Origin: Eubacteriales bacterium
Lineage (GTDB): Bacteria > Bacillota > Clostridia > Oscillospirales > CAG-272
NCBI GenBank assembly: GCA_045629745.1
Contig: JAZQRU010000042.1
Span: 24,358 to 88,357, forward strand
DNA length: 64,000 nucleotides
Direction: 5' to 3'
The notes beneath the pieces are model-generated. The model saw nothing but the letters and a program-made list of their open reading frames with translations, ran no database searches and was not told where the DNA came from. This document shows positions 4,420 to 55,880 of this stretch, in pieces. The stretch's first letter is position 1; each line of letters opens with the position of its first letter. Both the position numbers and the translations under genes were made by a program.

Positions 4420-5745
4420 TTATTCGTCACATTTTTTGTCACATTGTTCCCGAACCTTACATTCCTTTGATTTTAAATGTAATTCGGCACTTGTTTTTTT
4501 GAAAAGCTCCTCTGTTGCAAGACGGGCTTTAGTAACTATTTCATTCTTGCATTTAGGGAAGCAATAAAAAAGCGCCTTTGAGTTTCCTATCGAAATAACG
4601 TCGCCGATTTCGTACCAGTTGAAGTCGGAATTCAAGGTATATGAGGCGAGAGGCTTTTGCTCGTAATCAAGCGCGCCGTCGCATCCCGTGAGCTTAAAGC
4701 CCTCACCCGTGTGAAGAAGATTGCCCTCTCCGACGTGGTAAAGATGCTTTGTGTCAACAGTCATACAGATGTCTACGGGTACGTTAATTTTATAAGTTCC
4801 CTCTTCTACTTCACGCTTGACGCACTCTCTTTGCCAATTGTACCACGTGGGTATATGGTCGAATTTTGTTTCAGCTGTGGTTGATTTTAAATAGCCGTAT
4901 TCGTCAAGGATATACGCATTTCCGCACGACTCGCATTTGATTTCGATGCCCTTGCCCTTCATTTCACCCTCGGAAAGACAGTCAGGACATTTATAAAGCA
5001 AGCGATTTAAGTAATCTGCCCTAAACGGCTCGTCTACCTTGATTTTATTTTCCTTTTGCCAAGCAAAGCTATCAAAGGAAAATTCAGCATTTATTTTCTC
5101 GTTTATCTCGTCACAGCTAAGCGCTTCAACGTCCTCGCGAGTGAGAAGAAACTCCTCTTTTGCCGACACCTTTACTTTGCGGCGCTGAAGATTATTATAA
5201 AGAGGATCGCGGTGATACGCGCCAAAGGTTTTAATCATAACTACGGGAACTTTTAAAAGCTTTATGCACTTTCCCAGGCTCTGCGGCAAAACGGTTGCGG
5301 TTCCGTCAAACGAATATCCCGCTTCGGGAAAAAGGACTACGGAGCTTTTCTTTTCCCGAAGCGCGTATTCCATATCGTGTATGAGAGTCAGGTCGTTTAC
5401 AAACTTTTTCGTAGGAATGCAGCCTATACTTCTCATAAGCCAGTTTTTGCCTATGAAGCCGTCTGTTGTAGTTACAATATTAAAGGGGCGCGGATAAAGC
5501 ATAGTTGCCACTATTTCAAGGTCGATAAAGCTTGAGTGATTTACAAGATAGAGGCAGTGCTCTCGCTTCCCGAGCTTCTCCATACCGACTCTTTCAAAGC
5601 TAAAAGAAGTTTTCTTAAGGTCCGGGATAGAAACAAGACGCATAAGGGTGCGAAAAAACATATTTGGGCGCTGGGGCTTTTTATGCTTTTGCTTCGGAAG
5701 TGCCATTACTTCCTCGTAAGACTTTTCTGTGATTTTAATCTTCAT
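4420..5745 (-). CDS. PlsC-type lysophospholipid acyltransferase with C-terminal Cys4 zinc-ribbon-containing domain
   Basis: HX4D motif (VNHSSFIDL) and FPEAG block. C-terminal half has CPDC...CESC. Start moved to ATG 5745 (MKIKITEK...), which follows a GAGG SD; the ORF-track start at 5781 lacks one. Confidence 0.7.
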   Translation of the reverse strand: MKIKITEKSYEEVMALPKQKHKKPQRPNMFFRTLMRLVSIPDLKKTSFSFERVGMEKLGKREHCLYLVNHSSFIDLEIVATMLYPRPFNIVTTTDGFIGKNWLMRSIGCIPTKKFVNDLTLIHDMEYALREKKSSVVLFPEAGYSFDGTATVLPQSLGKCIKLLKVPVVMIKTFGAYHRDPLYNNLQRRKVKVSAKEEFLLTREDVEALSCDEINEKINAEFSFDSFAWQKENKIKVDEPFRADYLNRLLYKCPDCLSEGEMKGKGIEIKCESCGNAYILDEYGYLKSTTAETKFDHIPTWYNWQRECVKREVEEGTYKINVPVDICMTVDTKHLYHVGEGNLLHTGEGFKLTGCDGALDYEQKPLASYTLNSDFNWYEIGDVISIGNSKALFYCFPKCKNEIVTKARLATEELFKKTSAELHLKSKECKVREQCDKKCDE

Positions 5746-8823: not shown

Positions 8824-9190
8824 TTGACCGAACGGGGCAATCGCGCGATATGGCGCCGAAAGGTATTATCGTGAGGAAAGTCCGGGCTTCGCAGGGCAGG
8901 ATAACGGATAACGTCCGCCGAGGGTAACCTCCGGGAAAGTGCAACAGAAATAAACCGCCGCTTTTGCGGTAAGGATGGAAAGGCGAGGTAAGAGCTCACC
9001 CGTGGCTATGGTAACATAGCTTCGCTGTAAACCCTATCCGAAGCAACACCTTGAATTTCGTTTTTACGAGGGGCTGCCCGCCCCTTTTCGTGGTGGCATA
9101 GCTTTTAGCTTGAACTGTGCGGTAACGTACAGTGAAGATAGATGATTGCCGCGCATTTTGCGTACAGAACCCGGCTTACAAGTTCGATCA
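8824..9190 (+). ncRNA. rnpB: RNase P RNA, bacterial type A
   Basis: Universal blocks GAGGAAAGTCCGGGCT, AGTGCAACAGAAA..AACCGCC, GGTAAGAGCTCACC and ACAGAACCCGGCTTA. 5' TGACCGAAC pairs with 3' GTTCGATCA (P1); about 367 nt. Confidence 0.9.
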
Positions 9191-9192
9191 TT

Positions 9193-9227
9193 AAAAAAAG
9201 AGGCTTTACGCCTCTTTTTATTTTTTC
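9193..9227. terminator. Rho-independent terminator after rnpB (bidirectional)
   Basis: AAAGAGGC-tttac-GCCTCTTT followed by TTATTTTTT. Confidence 0.7.
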
Positions 9228-38085: not shown

Positions 38086-38577
38086 TCATTTTCCTACCGC
38101 TTTTGCCAAGCTTGGATATAAATTATAAACAGTTTTGCCGAGCTTTTGCGCCATTCTCAATGTCTGGGCGCTGCCGCCCATATATCTTCCCACGTAAGAG
38201 ATAAGCATATCGCATCTCTTTGCAAGCTCCGCGTTTCTTTCTTTCATACATCCGTCGTAATATTCCTCGGCAAGATATTCTATCTCGTCAGCGACTGAAA
38301 GTGTATATTCATAGACCGATTTTTCGTAATCACTCCATTTTTCAGACTGATTTTTACAGGGAACGAGGATAATAAGGCGCACGTCCGGGTGGCTTATGCG
38401 GAAAGTTATCACCGCCTTTGCCGCTAAGGTATCAAATCCGACGGCTCCTCCAGTAAGAAAGCTTCTCACTCCGTTTTCATAAGCGTAAGCTACGGATTTT
38501 GTCAAAAGCTCAAGAAGCTTCGCTTTGTGCGCTTTATCTATTCGTCTGTGGCCCGTAAACGAGCATATCTTATCCAT
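38086..38577 (-). CDS. SLOG-superfamily protein, DUF1273/YpsA-like
   Basis: N-terminal ...CSFTGHR... hallmark, ...TGGAVGFDTLAA... nucleotide-binding Rossmann-like loop; 163 aa. Confidence 0.7.
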   Translation of the reverse strand: MDKICSFTGHRRIDKAHKAKLLELLTKSVAYAYENGVRSFLTGGAVGFDTLAAKAVITFRISHPDVRLIILVPCKNQSEKWSDYEKSVYEYTLSVADEIEYLAEEYYDGCMKERNAELAKRCDMLISYVGRYMGGSAQTLRMAQKLGKTVYNLYPSLAKAVGK

Positions 38578-38682
38578 AACGCGAACCTTTCAAAAAAGCT
38601 TTTATTATATTGTAACACGACTTATTTTCTTTGTCAATGAATAAGAGCGTTTTCCTATTTTTTAAAAAAGTTTGAAAAAGCC

Positions 38683-38711
38683 TTGACTTTCAACTAATCT
38701 TATGCTATAAT
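38683..38711 (+). promoter_or_regulatory. SigA-type promoter of the CNNM leader
   Basis: TTGACT (38683-38688), 17 nt, TGcTATAAT (-10 at 38706-38711). Confidence 0.55.
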
Positions 38712-38767
38712 TTTGCATAACGACGCTTGAAGCAGAAAATGCTTCGGTGAATCTTTTGGAGGAAATT

Positions 38768-38845
38768 ATGGACGACGGCGACGCGGACAATTGTCAGCAT
38801 AACACCGTATTTTTTCATATAAATTTGAGGTATAACCGTGCTTAA
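38768..38845 (+). CDS. Candidate leader peptide (25 aa, acidic N-terminus)
   Basis: GGAGG 5 nt upstream of the ATG; MDDGDADNCQHNTVFFHINLRYNRA. Its last sense codons form the 5' arm of the downstream terminator and its stop codon lies in the loop. Confidence 0.4.
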   Translation: MDDGDADNCQHNTVFFHINLRYNRA

Positions 38846-38877
38846 TTAGGGACGGTTATGCCTTTTTTGCCTTTTTT
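38829..38877 (+). terminator. Leader intrinsic terminator (attenuator) upstream of the CNNM gene
   Basis: GGTATAACCGT (38829-38839) / ACGGTTATGCC (38852-38862): 11-bp stem with one G-U pair and a 12-nt loop, followed by TTTTTTgccTTTTTT. Confidence 0.7.
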
Positions 38878-38929
38878 AAGGCTCACCCATAAATTTTACG
38901 TCGTTTGAAAGGAAAAAAATTAAAACACC

Positions 38930-40246
38930 ATGGACATTCCCTTGCAAATTGCGCTCATTATTTTATGTATTATAACGTCCGCATACTTCTCAGCAACAGA
39001 AACCGCATTCACAACTCTTAACAGAATTAGAATTAAAAATCTCGCAGAAGACGGAAACAAAAAAGCTAAGCTCGTTCACAAGCTTACCGATAAATACGAT
39101 ACTATGCTTTCCTCCGTGCTTATCGGAAACAATATCGTTAATATACTCAGCTCGTCTTTGGCAACTGTTCTTTTCATTGACTTAATGAAAGACTCCGGAC
39201 ATTCCGACCTTGCCACGACGGTTTCTACAGTAGTTATGACGCTTCTAATTCTTATCTTCGGCGAAATAACTCCTAAAACGCTTTCAAAAAGAGCGCCCGA
39301 GAAATTCGCTATGTTCTCTGCTCCCTTGCTCAATGCTATTATGATTATTTTAAGACCTTTTTCGTTTATCTTCCAGCAATGGCAAAACCTTCTTACGAAA
39401 ATCTTTAAGTCAGACGACGATAAGGGCATCACGGAAGAAGAGCTTATCTCGATTATAGAGGAAGCTGAAGAGGAAGGCGACTTCGACAAGGAAGAAAGCA
39501 CGCTTATCAAGAGCGCAATTGAATTCGGAGACCTTGAGGTTGGCGATATTTTCACTCCCCGCCGCGATATTACCGCAGTTTCGAGCGATGCGACAAAGGA
39601 AGAAATCGTCGAGGTATTCACCGAGTCGGGATATTCGAGAATTCCCATTTACGAAGACGATATTGATAACATCAAGGGTATTATCTATTACAAGGATTTC
39701 TACACTCTTGCATTTAACACGGAAATTCCCATATCGGAAATAATCAAGCCCGTTATTTACGTTGCAAAGGCACAGAAAATAAACGACCTTCTTAAAGAGC
39801 TTCAGTCAAAGCAGCTACACTTTGCCGTAGTTATGGACGAATTCGGCTCAACCGCAGGTATAGTTACTCTCGAGGACATACTCGAAGAAATAGTAGGCGA
39901 AATCTGGGACGAGCACGACGAAATAGTTGAAGAGATTACTAAAATCAGCGAAAAAGAATACATCGTTTCGGGTATGGCAAACGTTTCAAAGGTGTTCGAC
40001 GTTTTCGATATTGACGACGGCGAAATCGAAGCGCAGACGATAAACGGCTGGGCGATGGCAACGCTCGGAAAAATCCCCGAAGTCGGCGATAGCTTCGAGA
40101 GTGACGGACTTGCAGTTGAAATTCTTGAAATGGACGACAAGCGCGTCGAGAATCTTCGCATAATCGACATAAGAGAAGACGAGGAAGACGACGAAGACGG
40201 CAGACACAAGAAAAAGCACGACGAAGAAGAAAAGTCCGAAGAATAA
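38930..40246 (+). CDS. CNNM/CorC-family divalent-cation transporter (DUF21 + CBS pair + CorC_HlyC)
   Basis: DUF21 TM domain (...SAYFSATETAF...GEITPK...), CBS pair, C-terminal ...VDEFGSTAGIVTLEDILEEIVGEI...; highly acidic C-terminal tail. Confidence 0.9.
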   Translation: MDIPLQIALIILCIITSAYFSATETAFTTLNRIRIKNLAEDGNKKAKLVHKLTDKYDTMLSSVLIGNNIVNILSSSLATVLFIDLMKDSGHSDLATTVSTVVMTLLILIFGEITPKTLSKRAPEKFAMFSAPLLNAIMIILRPFSFIFQQWQNLLTKIFKSDDDKGITEEELISIIEEAEEEGDFDKEESTLIKSAIEFGDLEVGDIFTPRRDITAVSSDATKEEIVEVFTESGYSRIPIYEDDIDNIKGIIYYKDFYTLAFNTEIPISEIIKPVIYVAKAQKINDLLKELQSKQLHFAVVMDEFGSTAGIVTLEDILEEIVGEIWDEHDEIVEEITKISEKEYIVSGMANVSKVFDVFDIDDGEIEAQTINGWAMATLGKIPEVGDSFESDGLAVEILEMDDKRVENLRIIDIREDEEDDEDGRHKKKHDEEEKSEE

Positions 40247-40359: not shown

Positions 40360-41802
40360 TTATTGTTTTTTATAAGTTCTGGGATAGAAAAGTATCAGCA
40401 TAGGAAAAAGCTCAAGTCTTCCCGCAAGCATAGTGAAGGATAAAACAAGCTTTGAAAAAGCCGAAAAGAAACCGAAATTCCCTGTCGGACCAACCATTTC
40501 AAGTCCCGGGCCGATATTATTTATCGTTGCTACGATAGCCGTAAAATTCGTTACAAGGTCGTGTCCCTCAAAGGATATCAGAACAAGAGAAACGACAAAA
40601 ACTATGATATAACATATCATATAAGCATTGACGGAGCGTATCGTTTCGCGCTCGACTTCCTTGCCGTCGATGGATATTTTTCTGACGCGGCGAGGGTGAA
40701 TTATGGTTCTTACCTCCCTTGCCATACCTTTAACGAGTATCACGAGGCGCGAGACCTTGATACCGCCGCCCGTGCTTCCTGCGCACGCACCGATAAACAT
40801 TATAAGAACGATAACAGTTTTTGAAAGCGCGGGCCAAAGATTAAAGTCAGCGCTCGCAAAGCCTGCGGTTGAAATAATGCTTGCGACGTTAAAGAGCGCG
40901 TGGCGAAGAGCCTCGCCGAAGCTATCAAAATAAGCATTTTTGAAAACGTTTACGCTTATAAGGGCAACCGCCACAAAAACTATAATGAAAAACGTCTTTA
41001 CTTCCGTTGAAAAGGATTCCTTTATTCTTCCTCGCAACGCAAGATAGTACGACGCAAAGTTAACGGAAAAAATCAAAAGAAATACAGACGTTACCACCTG
41101 AGCGTACGGAGTTGAAGAGATAAAGCTATCGTTATTTATTGAAAATCCGCCCGTGCCTGCCGTTGAAAACGCGACGTTCAAGGCTTCAAACGCGCTCATT
41201 TCGTCAAAGAGAAGCAAAACAAATTGCAAAACGGTAAGACCGAAATAAATTAGATAGAGAATAAGAGCCGTAGTTTTTACCTTTGGAACAAGCTTTGACA
41301 CAGAGGGGCCGGGGCTTTCAGCCCTCATAATATTCATATTGTGAGCTCCGCTGAGGGGAAGAAATGCCATTATGAAAACAAGCACTCCCATACCGCCTAT
41401 CCAGTTTGTGAAGCTGCGCCATATAAGGACACACTTGGGCAGCGCCTCAACGTCTGCAATTACACTTGCTCCCGTGGTCGTAAAGCCCGAAACGGTTTCA
41501 AAAAATGCGTCTATATAATTCTCGGTTGCGCCGGAAAATACGAACGGAAGCGCGCCGAAAAGACTTAAAACTATCCACGAAAGCGCGACTATCATAAAGC
41601 CGTCGCGCGAATAAAGCTTGGTATTCTCAGGCTTTTTGAGAACGAAAAGCGCGCCGACAGCTCCCACCGCAAGCATCGAATAAAGGAAAGAGAGAGTTGC
41701 CTTTTCCCAGAAAACGATACCTGTTATAAGCGGAAGAAGAAAGAACGCCGCTTCGAAAAGCATAAGCCAGCCGAGCGTATATTTTATCATTCTGTAATTC
41801 AT
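40360..41802 (-). CDS. trkH: TrkH/KtrB-family potassium transporter
   Basis: 480-aa polytopic protein with repeated pore-loop motifs (...TTGAS..., ...TAGTGG..., ...STGGGIKV...). Confidence 0.9.
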   Translation of the reverse strand: MNYRMIKYTLGWLMLFEAAFFLLPLITGIVFWEKATLSFLYSMLAVGAVGALFVLKKPENTKLYSRDGFMIVALSWIVLSLFGALPFVFSGATENYIDAFFETVSGFTTTGASVIADVEALPKCVLIWRSFTNWIGGMGVLVFIMAFLPLSGAHNMNIMRAESPGPSVSKLVPKVKTTALILYLIYFGLTVLQFVLLLFDEMSAFEALNVAFSTAGTGGFSINNDSFISSTPYAQVVTSVFLLIFSVNFASYYLALRGRIKESFSTEVKTFFIIVFVAVALISVNVFKNAYFDSFGEALRHALFNVASIISTAGFASADFNLWPALSKTVIVLIMFIGACAGSTGGGIKVSRLVILVKGMAREVRTIIHPRRVRKISIDGKEVERETIRSVNAYMICYIIVFVVSLVLISFEGHDLVTNFTAIVATINNIGPGLEMVGPTGNFGFFSAFSKLVLSFTMLAGRLELFPMLILFYPRTYKKQ

Positions 41803-55790: not shown

Positions 55791-55880
55791 TGGCGGAGAA
55801 GAAAGGATTTGAACCTTCGCGCCGGTTGCCCGACCTACACCCTTAGCAGGGGCGCCTCTTCACCACTTGAGTACTTCTCC
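55791..55880 (-). tRNA. tRNA-Ser (anticodon GCU)
   Basis: Minus strand GGAGAAG...CGCCC-CUGCUAA-GGGUG, long variable arm, GAAGGTTCAAATCCTTT T-arm, CTTCTCC acceptor, G discriminator and encoded CCA; 90 nt. Confidence 0.95.

Follow-up and report, generated by a model that had tools for sequence, protein, structure and literature searches.

An acidic leader reading frame that reaches an intrinsic terminator precedes CNNM-type transporter genes of Clostridia and may link their transcription to cation levels

Sequences rich in Asp, Glu or Pro (D/E/P) directly after the initiator Met abort translation by intrinsic ribosome destabilization (IRD), which is favored by small neighboring residues and suppressed by a nascent chain that fills the tunnel, and the MgtL leader peptide (MEPDPT) senses low Mg2+ through IRD (Chadani et al. 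2021). IRD is also shown by the N terminus of Escherichia coli YbeX/CorC (MSDDNSHSSDT), for which it was proposed that more Mg2+ leads to less abortion and more CorC (Chadani et al. 2021). Salmonella responds to high Mg2+ by inducing corC and mgpA. Moreover, stalling of E. coli ribosomes upstream of an intrinsic terminator that lies within an open reading frame (ORF) raises termination (Elgamal et al. 2016). Here we analyzed the leader of a gene for a CNNM(DUF21)-CBS-CorC transporter in an Eubacteriales bacterium of the CAG-272 lineage (Clostridia; GenBank assembly GCA_045629745.1, contig JAZQRU010000042.1, positions 24,358 to 88,357), a 64,000-nucleotide stretch that we call the window and whose own numbering is used throughout. 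A preliminary description of the window had noted a short Asp-rich ORF with its stop codon inside an intrinsic terminator upstream of this gene, and had suggested that completion of the peptide, favored at high Mg2+, gates read-through.

Like MgtL, which precedes mgtA in Salmonella and E. coli, the leader ORF is short, lies before the gene of a predicted Mg2+ transporter and carries D/E/P residues right after its Met, and in both cases completion of translation is, or here would be, coupled to transcription termination in the leader. The peptides show no sequence homology (MEPDPT... in MgtL; MDDGDAD... or MDEPPP... here), and the likeness is one of working only, not of family. The two also differ in sign and machinery: mgtA encodes a P-type importer that is switched ON by abortion, through alternative stem-loops and Rho, whereas here completion would switch ON an exporter-type CNNM protein by way of an intrinsic terminator overlapped by the ORF. 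Furthermore, MgtL is enterobacterial, while the host here belongs to a Gram-positive-type Clostridia lineage. E. coli CorC/YbeX shares with the present locus an N-terminal motif of Asp and small residues, a gene with a CorC domain related to Mg2+ efflux and the same proposed Mg2+ logic; there, however, the motif is the CorC N terminus and acts on translation of corC, whereas here a separate leader ORF would gate a terminator or, in three related loci (L015 to L017), be translationally coupled to the gene. The N terminus of the window CNNM protein itself, MDIPLQIALII, is not rich in acidic residues.

Translation of a small upstream ORF is likewise needed for expression of cation or polyamine efflux genes in the pairs YoaL-MgpA (YoaE) and MdtU-MdtJI, neither of which has an intrinsic terminator overlapped by the ORF. 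In E. coli K-12, yoaL (5574-5732 of locus L215, minus strand) encodes the reported MgpA/YoaE leader peptide; it has 13 nt in common with the yoaE start, and overlap with the downstream start is also seen in the leader ORFs of L015 to L017. YoaL was nevertheless rejected as an acidic analogue, being a basic peptide of 52 amino acids (MDRHRRHFSIRPF...) that is not D/E/P-rich, and MdtU acts via Rho and a conserved C terminus. Our full-text literature searches revealed no CNNM leader peptide described for Firmicutes or Clostridia, an absence that is no proof. To that extent the earlier statement that the arrangement was undescribed for CNNM genes holds, but control by IRD had already been proposed for E. 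coli CorC/YbeX by Chadani et al.

All elements of the leader listed in the preliminary description, from the promoter to the downstream gene, were recovered at the same positions, and, beyond what chance would give, many genomes have the same unit of ORF and terminator in front of a CNNM homologue. The promoter scan identified an extended -10 promoter of the sigma-70 type at 38683-38711 (plus strand, as for all features below unless noted), which consists of TTGACT (38683-38688), a 17-nt spacer and TGcTATAAT (38703-38711); matching the hexamers at 11 of 12 positions and also carrying the TG, it was the top plus-strand site in the 3.5 kb scanned, and a TTGAC(T/A)-17-TA..AT promoter occurs at the same distance in 20 relatives. 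A Shine-Dalgarno (SD) sequence, GGAGG (38758-38762), is followed after 5 nt by the ATG at 38768 of a leader ORF of 25 codons plus TAA (38768-38845, stop codon at 38843-38845) with the sequence MDDGDADNCQHNTVFFHINLRYNRA. Codons 2 to 7 (38771-38788) encode DDGDAD, a D/E/P-rich motif with small residues and the putative ribosome-destabilizing sensor, in which D/E/P account for four of six residues, placing the peptide within the 4-in-6 criterion of Chadani et al. The intrinsic terminator (38829-38877) is composed of a 5' arm (38829-38839), a 3' arm (38852-38862) and the U-tract T6GCCT6 (38863-38877). Its stem has 11 bp, including one G-U pair, plus 3 inner pairs, and the hairpin has a ΔG of about -19.9 kcal/mol. 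ORF codons 21 to 25 form the 5' arm, the T of the TAA closes the inner stem and its AA lies in the tetraloop.

The leader ORF with its SD is located 85 nt upstream of the presumably regulated gene (38930-40246; 438 amino acids), whose product contains a CNNM domain, two CBS domains and a CorC_HlyC domain (Pfam E values of 1e-55, 5e-18 and 2e-16, all scoring above the cut-offs). Its nearest solved structures are archaeal and bacterial CorB/CorC Mg2+ transporters (7m1t, E 3e-56; 4hg0), in agreement with the DUF21-CBS-CorC identity first assigned to it. No known RNA family accounts for the leader, as had been anticipated for the M-box and other riboswitches. At gathering score, Rfam matched nothing in the leader and, in the whole window, only a bacterial class A RNase P RNA (8825-9194, 248 bits) and a tRNA (55794-55880, minus strand); at E ≤ 10, the best matches within 38560-39000 had E values of 2.4 to 9.4, far under the cut-offs, and did not include a Mg_sensor or mgtA leader. 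Similarly, no metal riboswitch or other riboswitch was detected near the CNNM gene in 57 related loci (Rfam 15: M-box, yybP-ykoY, NiCo and others).

To place the leader in a wider context, we compared about 130 related loci, comprising 80 CNNM homologues from species-representative genomes (46-69% identical), 14 loci from closer relatives (CNNM 75-88% identical) and the matches of a gene-blind metagenome scan with the pattern TGGAGG-N3-6-ATGGACGACGGCG. When the window intergenic region was used as a blastn query, the part found upstream of CNNM homologues was exactly 38754-38877, that is, SD, ORF and terminator. The metagenome scan returned 120 matches, mostly ordinary MDDG… proteins from high-GC genomes; 12 matches of low GC content were true family members, and all of these that extend far enough have a CNNM gene downstream. 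Altogether, 34 distinct relatives carry an ORF of the type SD-ATG-GAC-GAC-GGC (MDDG…C…) in front of their CNNM genes, and the CNNM proteins of these relatives are mutually 52-94% identical. All 34 peptides, 13 to 27 amino acids long, keep the SD, the ATG, MDD(G/A) and an open frame, the GGAG(G) being placed 4 to 7 nt 5' of the start codon, and clear indels are of 3 nt (multiples of 3). D/E/P make up four of residues 2 to 7 in 15 peptides and three in 14. The conservation that the preliminary description had asked for is therefore present, since SD, start codon, acidic N terminus and frame are kept in every relative that keeps the hairpin. The peptide sequence is unconstrained beyond codon 14 or so, and this part of the ORF looks like a spacer. 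In the non-coding part of the leader, the terminator 3' arm and U-tract (ACGGTTATGCCTTTTTT) are best conserved.

Three further regularities were found in this MDDG clade. First, synonymous-biased variation had been expected, but codons 2 to 4 (GAC GAC GGC) show no variation at all: their third positions never vary in unbiased relatives, whereas of the 104 columns with an invariant residue in the CNNM genes from the same 20 loci, none keeps its third position unchanged (0.49 mean pairwise identity at these positions). Second, a Cys (codon 9 in the window, 38792-38794) occurs at residues 7 to 12 in 32 of the 34 peptides, encoded by TGT in 23 and TGC in 9, and is usually followed by Q or H. Third, a T/S-V pair is conserved as ACC or TCC followed by GTA, with Val always encoded by GTA. 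The resulting CCGTA is complementary to (T)ACGG of the terminator, a match that is lost in the sub-clade with the arm GTGG or ATGG and that may represent a small auxiliary pairing.

The position of the stop codon varies around the terminator. In the MDDG clade, anchored terminator searches placed its first base from -15 to +17 nt relative to the start of the 5' arm, with clusters at -10, at +4 (TAG inside GGCTTAGCC) and at +14, in the loop, the last being the sub-clade of the window. The stop codon in the terminator loop is thus a feature of the window's own sub-clade, but not of the family elsewhere. In relatives whose peptide begins with MDEPP the stop falls in the 3' arm or past the U-tract (with the exception of L026, where it is 5 nt before the 5' arm), and in those with MDDPSKRR or MTHSSSDD the ORF passes straight through the terminator. 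In all 31 scorable loci the leader frame is open to at most 15 nt from the hairpin or past it, while the other two frames are open that far in 18 and 9 of these loci. The conserved rule is that the ORF reaches the terminator, and the stop in the loop is a local detail. The MTH(S/N/Q)SS(D/E)D leader ORFs of L015 to L017 overlap the CNNM start codon in the ATGA manner, ending at its +1/+2, which suggests translational coupling on top of attenuation; before this overlap the ORF crosses an internal terminator-like hairpin in L015 and L016, and no such hairpin was found in the leader ORF of L017.

More distant Clostridia (CNNM 46-62% identical) have different short ORFs in front of the CNNM gene, the common property of which is a D/E/P-rich N terminus. 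These sub-families comprise MTHSSSDDTGVPC (L014 to L017), MN(H/N)SDDA(D/G)APY (L009 and L058), MIKSSDDTAVPY (L010), MDDPSKRR (six loci), MDEPP(P/L), which starts with GTG (eight loci; in L051 an ATG-started MDEPPR ORF occurs further upstream), MDDVPLP/Y (four loci) and MDS…D, with MTHSSSDDTGVP among the D/E/P-rich N termini. Across all sub-families the leader ORFs have 13 to 49 codons. In the distant ones the DD pair is encoded by GAT GAC or GAT GAT and E by GAA, and at this distance it is the amino acids that are kept and not the bases. Such ORFs were strongly enriched at this site. Small ORFs with an SD and MDD occurred in 17 of 80 upstream regions and were absent from the other 998 kb of these loci on either strand, and those with at least three D/E/P among residues 2 to 7 occurred in 36 of 80 upstream regions (about 6 expected), or with at least four in 13 of 80 (about 0.7 expected); the loci being related, the trials are not independent, yet the counts draw on at least six sub-families whose nucleotide sequences are unrelated. 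A D/E/P-rich N terminus as the single feature common to unrelated CNNM leader ORFs is what an MgtL- or IRD-type sensor predicts. No other leader of this type was found within the window. In L016, a RAGATH-18 RNA (2763-2836, 61 bits), the guide RNA of an IS607-type TnpB, lies about 45 nt upstream of the leader ORF, probably reflecting insertion of a transposon end in the CNNM promoter region.

Given this architecture, we propose a ribosome-mediated transcription attenuator in which the N terminus of the translated leader peptide serves as the sensor, the conserved sensor position being residues 1 to 6-8. The transcript would start at about 38718 and a ribosome would load at the GGAGG and the ATG at 38768, whereupon it would have to pass M-D-D-G-D-A-D, an Asp-rich stretch with small residues right after the initiator Met and a predicted IRD context. 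A ribosome that trails RNA polymerase to the end of the ORF would cover or unwind the 5' arm (codons 21 to 25 and the stop) with the polymerase at the U-tract, so that no hairpin would form and the CNNM gene would be transcribed. If translation instead aborts or stalls in the first ~10 codons, 38829 would not be reached, the hairpin at 38829-38862 would form and transcription would end at the U-tract; the ribosome itself would be the antiterminator. Since Mg2+, and probably also polyamines, should stabilize the 70S ribosome against IRD, the exporter would be ON at high cytoplasmic Mg2+ or cation levels and OFF at low levels, a mirror image of MgtL-mgtA. Mg2+ would then be both signal and substrate, the latter being suggested by membership in the CNNM family. 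We are fairly confident that a leader ORF that is translated serves as the gate for termination or coupling. That the signal is Mg2+ or another cation, perceived via ribosome destabilization, seems to us evenly balanced, and we lean slightly toward the combined proposal of a translated-leader attenuator with an Mg2+/IRD signal. The Mg2+ gating first suggested for this locus gains from the conservation of the ORF, from its reaching the terminator, from the lack of an Rfam family and from the D/E/P-rich N termini throughout the family, and loses the extra pairings that had been invoked along with it.

Several observations weigh against this proposal. Uncoupling of transcription from translation has been reported for Bacillus subtilis, in which case the leading ribosome would need pausing of the polymerase, and we found no conserved pause signal in the leaders. 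In about one-third of the MDDG-clade leaders the stop lies 8 to 15 nt upstream of the 5' arm, so that a terminating ribosome would touch at most the bottom 2 to 4 bp of the hairpin. Five MDDG-clade peptides have just two D/E/P in residues 2 to 7, and the conserved Cys (with Q/H) and T/S-V residues fall outside a model based on an acidic run. The invariance of codons 2 to 4 points to a constraint at the nucleotide level in addition to the peptide. Finally, the models do not appear to fix the substrate of the CNNM protein, which stays below every NCBIfam equivalog cut-off, including those of CorC (142.8 versus 379) and of PaeA (192 versus 500).

The last point bears on what the N terminus might report. 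The attenuator could work in the same way with the N terminus reporting general translation capacity, or other ribosome-stabilizing factors, and not Mg2+ specifically; candidates are polyamines, the activity or ATP state of EttA/YbiT/YfmR-type ABCF proteins, and EF-P for the variants with PPP, in which case polyamines or some other cation might be what the transporter exports. EttA and YbiT indeed relieve IRD at acidic N termini, and EttA modulates MgtL-dependent mgtA expression. The MDEPPP and MDDVPLP peptides contain EF-P-type proline motifs, and loss of EF-P raises termination at ORF-internal terminators. Moreover, the polyamine exporter PaeA belongs to the CNNM family, its model matching the window protein with an E value of 1.5e-56, under the model cut-off, and the spermidine exporter genes mdtJI are already known to be controlled by an upstream ORF. 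The nearest solved homologues are nonetheless Mg2+ transporters of the CorB/CorC type, and both the published IRD logic for corC/ybeX and the induction of corC and mgpA by Mg2+ favor Mg2+. We therefore regard a signal of this more general kind as rather unlikely, although the signals are not mutually exclusive, ribosomes being stabilized by both Mg2+ and polyamines.

The conserved Cys raises the possibility that the nascent peptide binds a divalent metal (Co2+, Mn2+, Zn2+, Ni2+ or Mg2+) directly in the ribosome, through Asp, Cys and His/Gln of its first ~12 residues, and in this way decides on elongation. The Cys is maintained with both synonymous codons, Cys or Tyr together with His or Arg recur at residues 6 to 15 of other sub-families, and a nascent chain that perceives copper via Cys has a precedent in the CXXC of CruR. 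A metal-binding chain would also lend the invariant GAC GAC GGC a meaning, namely a codon- or tRNA-specific need of the sensing step. Yet several sub-family members (for example, L033, L035, L049, L054 and L019) have neither Cys nor His, and a lone Cys is a weak candidate site, so that we consider it improbable that the Asp cluster and the Cys form a metal-binding nascent chain instead of passively reading out 70S stability.

The invariant third positions in ATG GAC GAC GGC and the unvarying GTA of the T/S-V pair could alternatively mean that the element is RNA only, either a structure that binds a ligand or protein or a plain partial terminator, with the ORF as an untranslated by-product. The leader RNA (217 nt) is in fact well structured: its fold beats 200 of 200 shuffles (z = -5.0). 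A long-range helix, P1, formed in the minimum-free-energy fold between AACGACG near the transcript 5' end (38719-38725) and CGTCGTT (38899-38905), encloses the leader ORF and terminator, its 3' strand, also paired by RNAalifold, ending just before UUGAAAGG. P1 covaries according to RNAalifold (AU<->GC, CG<->UA and GC<->AU), with AACGACG/CGTCGTT, AAGCAAC/GTTGCTT, AACAACG/CGTTGTT and TGACGCT/AGCGTTA as observed strands. A hairpin, P2 (38724-38749, core at 38729-38745), is followed by a U-rich linker and is found at this place in 19 of 19 leaders, with differing sequences. Against an RNA-only element, the SD and start codon are kept at the right spacing, clear indels are multiples of 3 and the Cys codon varies synonymously, while sub-families unrelated in nucleotide sequence have only the acidic or proline-containing N terminus and the overlap of ORF and terminator in common. 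P1 is present in 14 of 19 relatives and is missing from the sub-clade of L003 to L005, L007 and L008, which keeps the ORF; in addition, the leader matches no Rfam family, and RNAalifold, the output of which contained P1, a small helix near the ORF start and the terminator only, revealed no conserved complementary partner for the ORF start. Taken together, we hold an untranslated element to be quite improbable.

Specific pairings of the leader RNA were also considered. The GCATAAC copies that had been proposed to pair with the terminator 3' arm are indeed present in the window (38715-38721 and 38797-38803, with GTTATGC at 38855-38861), but in relatives with an 85-88% identical CNNM the copy inside the ORF is lost, reading GCACTAC, ATGTGC or GCACAGT, and the 5' copy has a central mismatch; we thus rejected a GCATAAC antiterminator. 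Pairing of the ORF start with the terminator arms was rejected as well, as it involves at most 4 to 5 bp and is lost when the arm changes (by eye and RNAalifold). A candidate pause hairpin inside the ORF (ACGG…CCGU followed by a U-run) was unsupported: relatives do not keep the U-run, and a different hairpin forms in the L003 sub-clade. P2 with its U-rich linker, situated just 5' of the leader SD and kept in relatives, could be a pause site; the terminator scan flagged 38727-38747 (the P2 hairpin and TGAATCTTTT) as terminator-like.

The sole SD-like element for the CNNM gene, UUGAAAGG (38905-38912), is 17 nt from the CNNM ATG, and no SD was found at 5 to 12 nt from this ATG (38930). Its GAAAGG is invariant in 20 of 20 aligned leaders, unlike the preceding UU, and lies 17 to 24 nt upstream of the CNNM ATG across relatives of the MDDG clade, followed by an A-rich stretch; the other sub-families have an equivalent GAAAGGA or GGAGTTGAT at the normal 9 to 12 nt. 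GAAAGG could pair with CCUUUU of the terminator tail, and P1, P2 and GAAAGG probably influence the stability or translation of the read-through mRNA.

The lack of a conserved antiterminator also separates the leader from attenuators of the trp/his type and from antibiotic-sensing leaders (yxjB of B. subtilis, msrD), which likewise combine a leader ORF with an intrinsic terminator and let the ribosome position decide. In the trp/his type an alternative antiterminator hairpin forms, whereas here none is conserved, as seen from the loss of the GCATAAC copies and from RNAalifold. The trp/his type further uses a run of codons for the amino acid of its operon, whereas here a transporter gene is preceded by Asp at codons 2 to 7, or Glu and Pro elsewhere, and the regulatory residues would be at the extreme N terminus, where a stall or abortion would lead to termination and not to read-through. 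Four Asp codons among the first seven and the many NAY codons (D, N, H and Y) of the window peptide would suit a classical amino-acid-supply attenuator, in which a shortage of charged tRNA would hold ribosomes up at Asp (and Asn/His) codons. Such a device is highly improbable in our view: the regulated gene encodes a cation transporter and belongs to no biosynthetic operon, a stall at codons 2 to 7 would promote termination, no antiterminator hairpin is conserved, and Glu and Pro replace Asp in other sub-families.

Regarding the neighborhood of the CNNM gene, a second near-consensus promoter on the minus strand (38609-38637; TTGACA, 17 nt, TG-TACAAT, 11 of 12 matches) faces a YpsA/SLOG-family gene (38086-38577, minus strand), and this divergent YpsA-CNNM pair is syntenic in most close relatives (L081 to L092 and L094). 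Directly 3' of the CNNM gene, a convergent gene (40360-41802, minus strand) encodes a TrkH-family K+ transporter, as it does in L091 and L094, so that two cation transporter genes stand side by side. In the metagenome contigs L085 to L087 the annotated start ATG of the CNNM gene (446 amino acids, gene called at 1201-2541) falls within the P1 3' strand (tacgtcgtATG); the gene is probably over-extended in the annotation, with the alignment placing the real start 27 nt downstream.

If translation of an acidic or proline-containing N terminus does control these leaders, several consequences would follow. We know of no regulator for the CNNM/CorB-type transporters of gut Clostridia, and a translated leader of this kind would explain their regulation. 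It would be at work in Clostridia, a group in which attenuation mediated by ribosomes is considered uncommon. The natural variants (MDDG…C, MDEPPP, MDDPSKRR, MDDVPLP and MTHSSSDDTGVP) would provide a ready mutational panel, and together with the three coupling modes (stop codon short of the terminator, within it or past it, and overlap with the start codon) they would allow "risky" N termini to be dissected, with instances found in the cultured strains Pseudoflavonifractor phocaeensis An569, Pseudoflavonifractor sp. MSJ-37 and Acetobacterium wieringae DSM 1911. IRD sensing would here be used with the opposite sign, switching an exporter on, and it would not be peculiar to enterobacterial mgtL but would be a widespread and repeatedly re-invented control of cation homeostasis.

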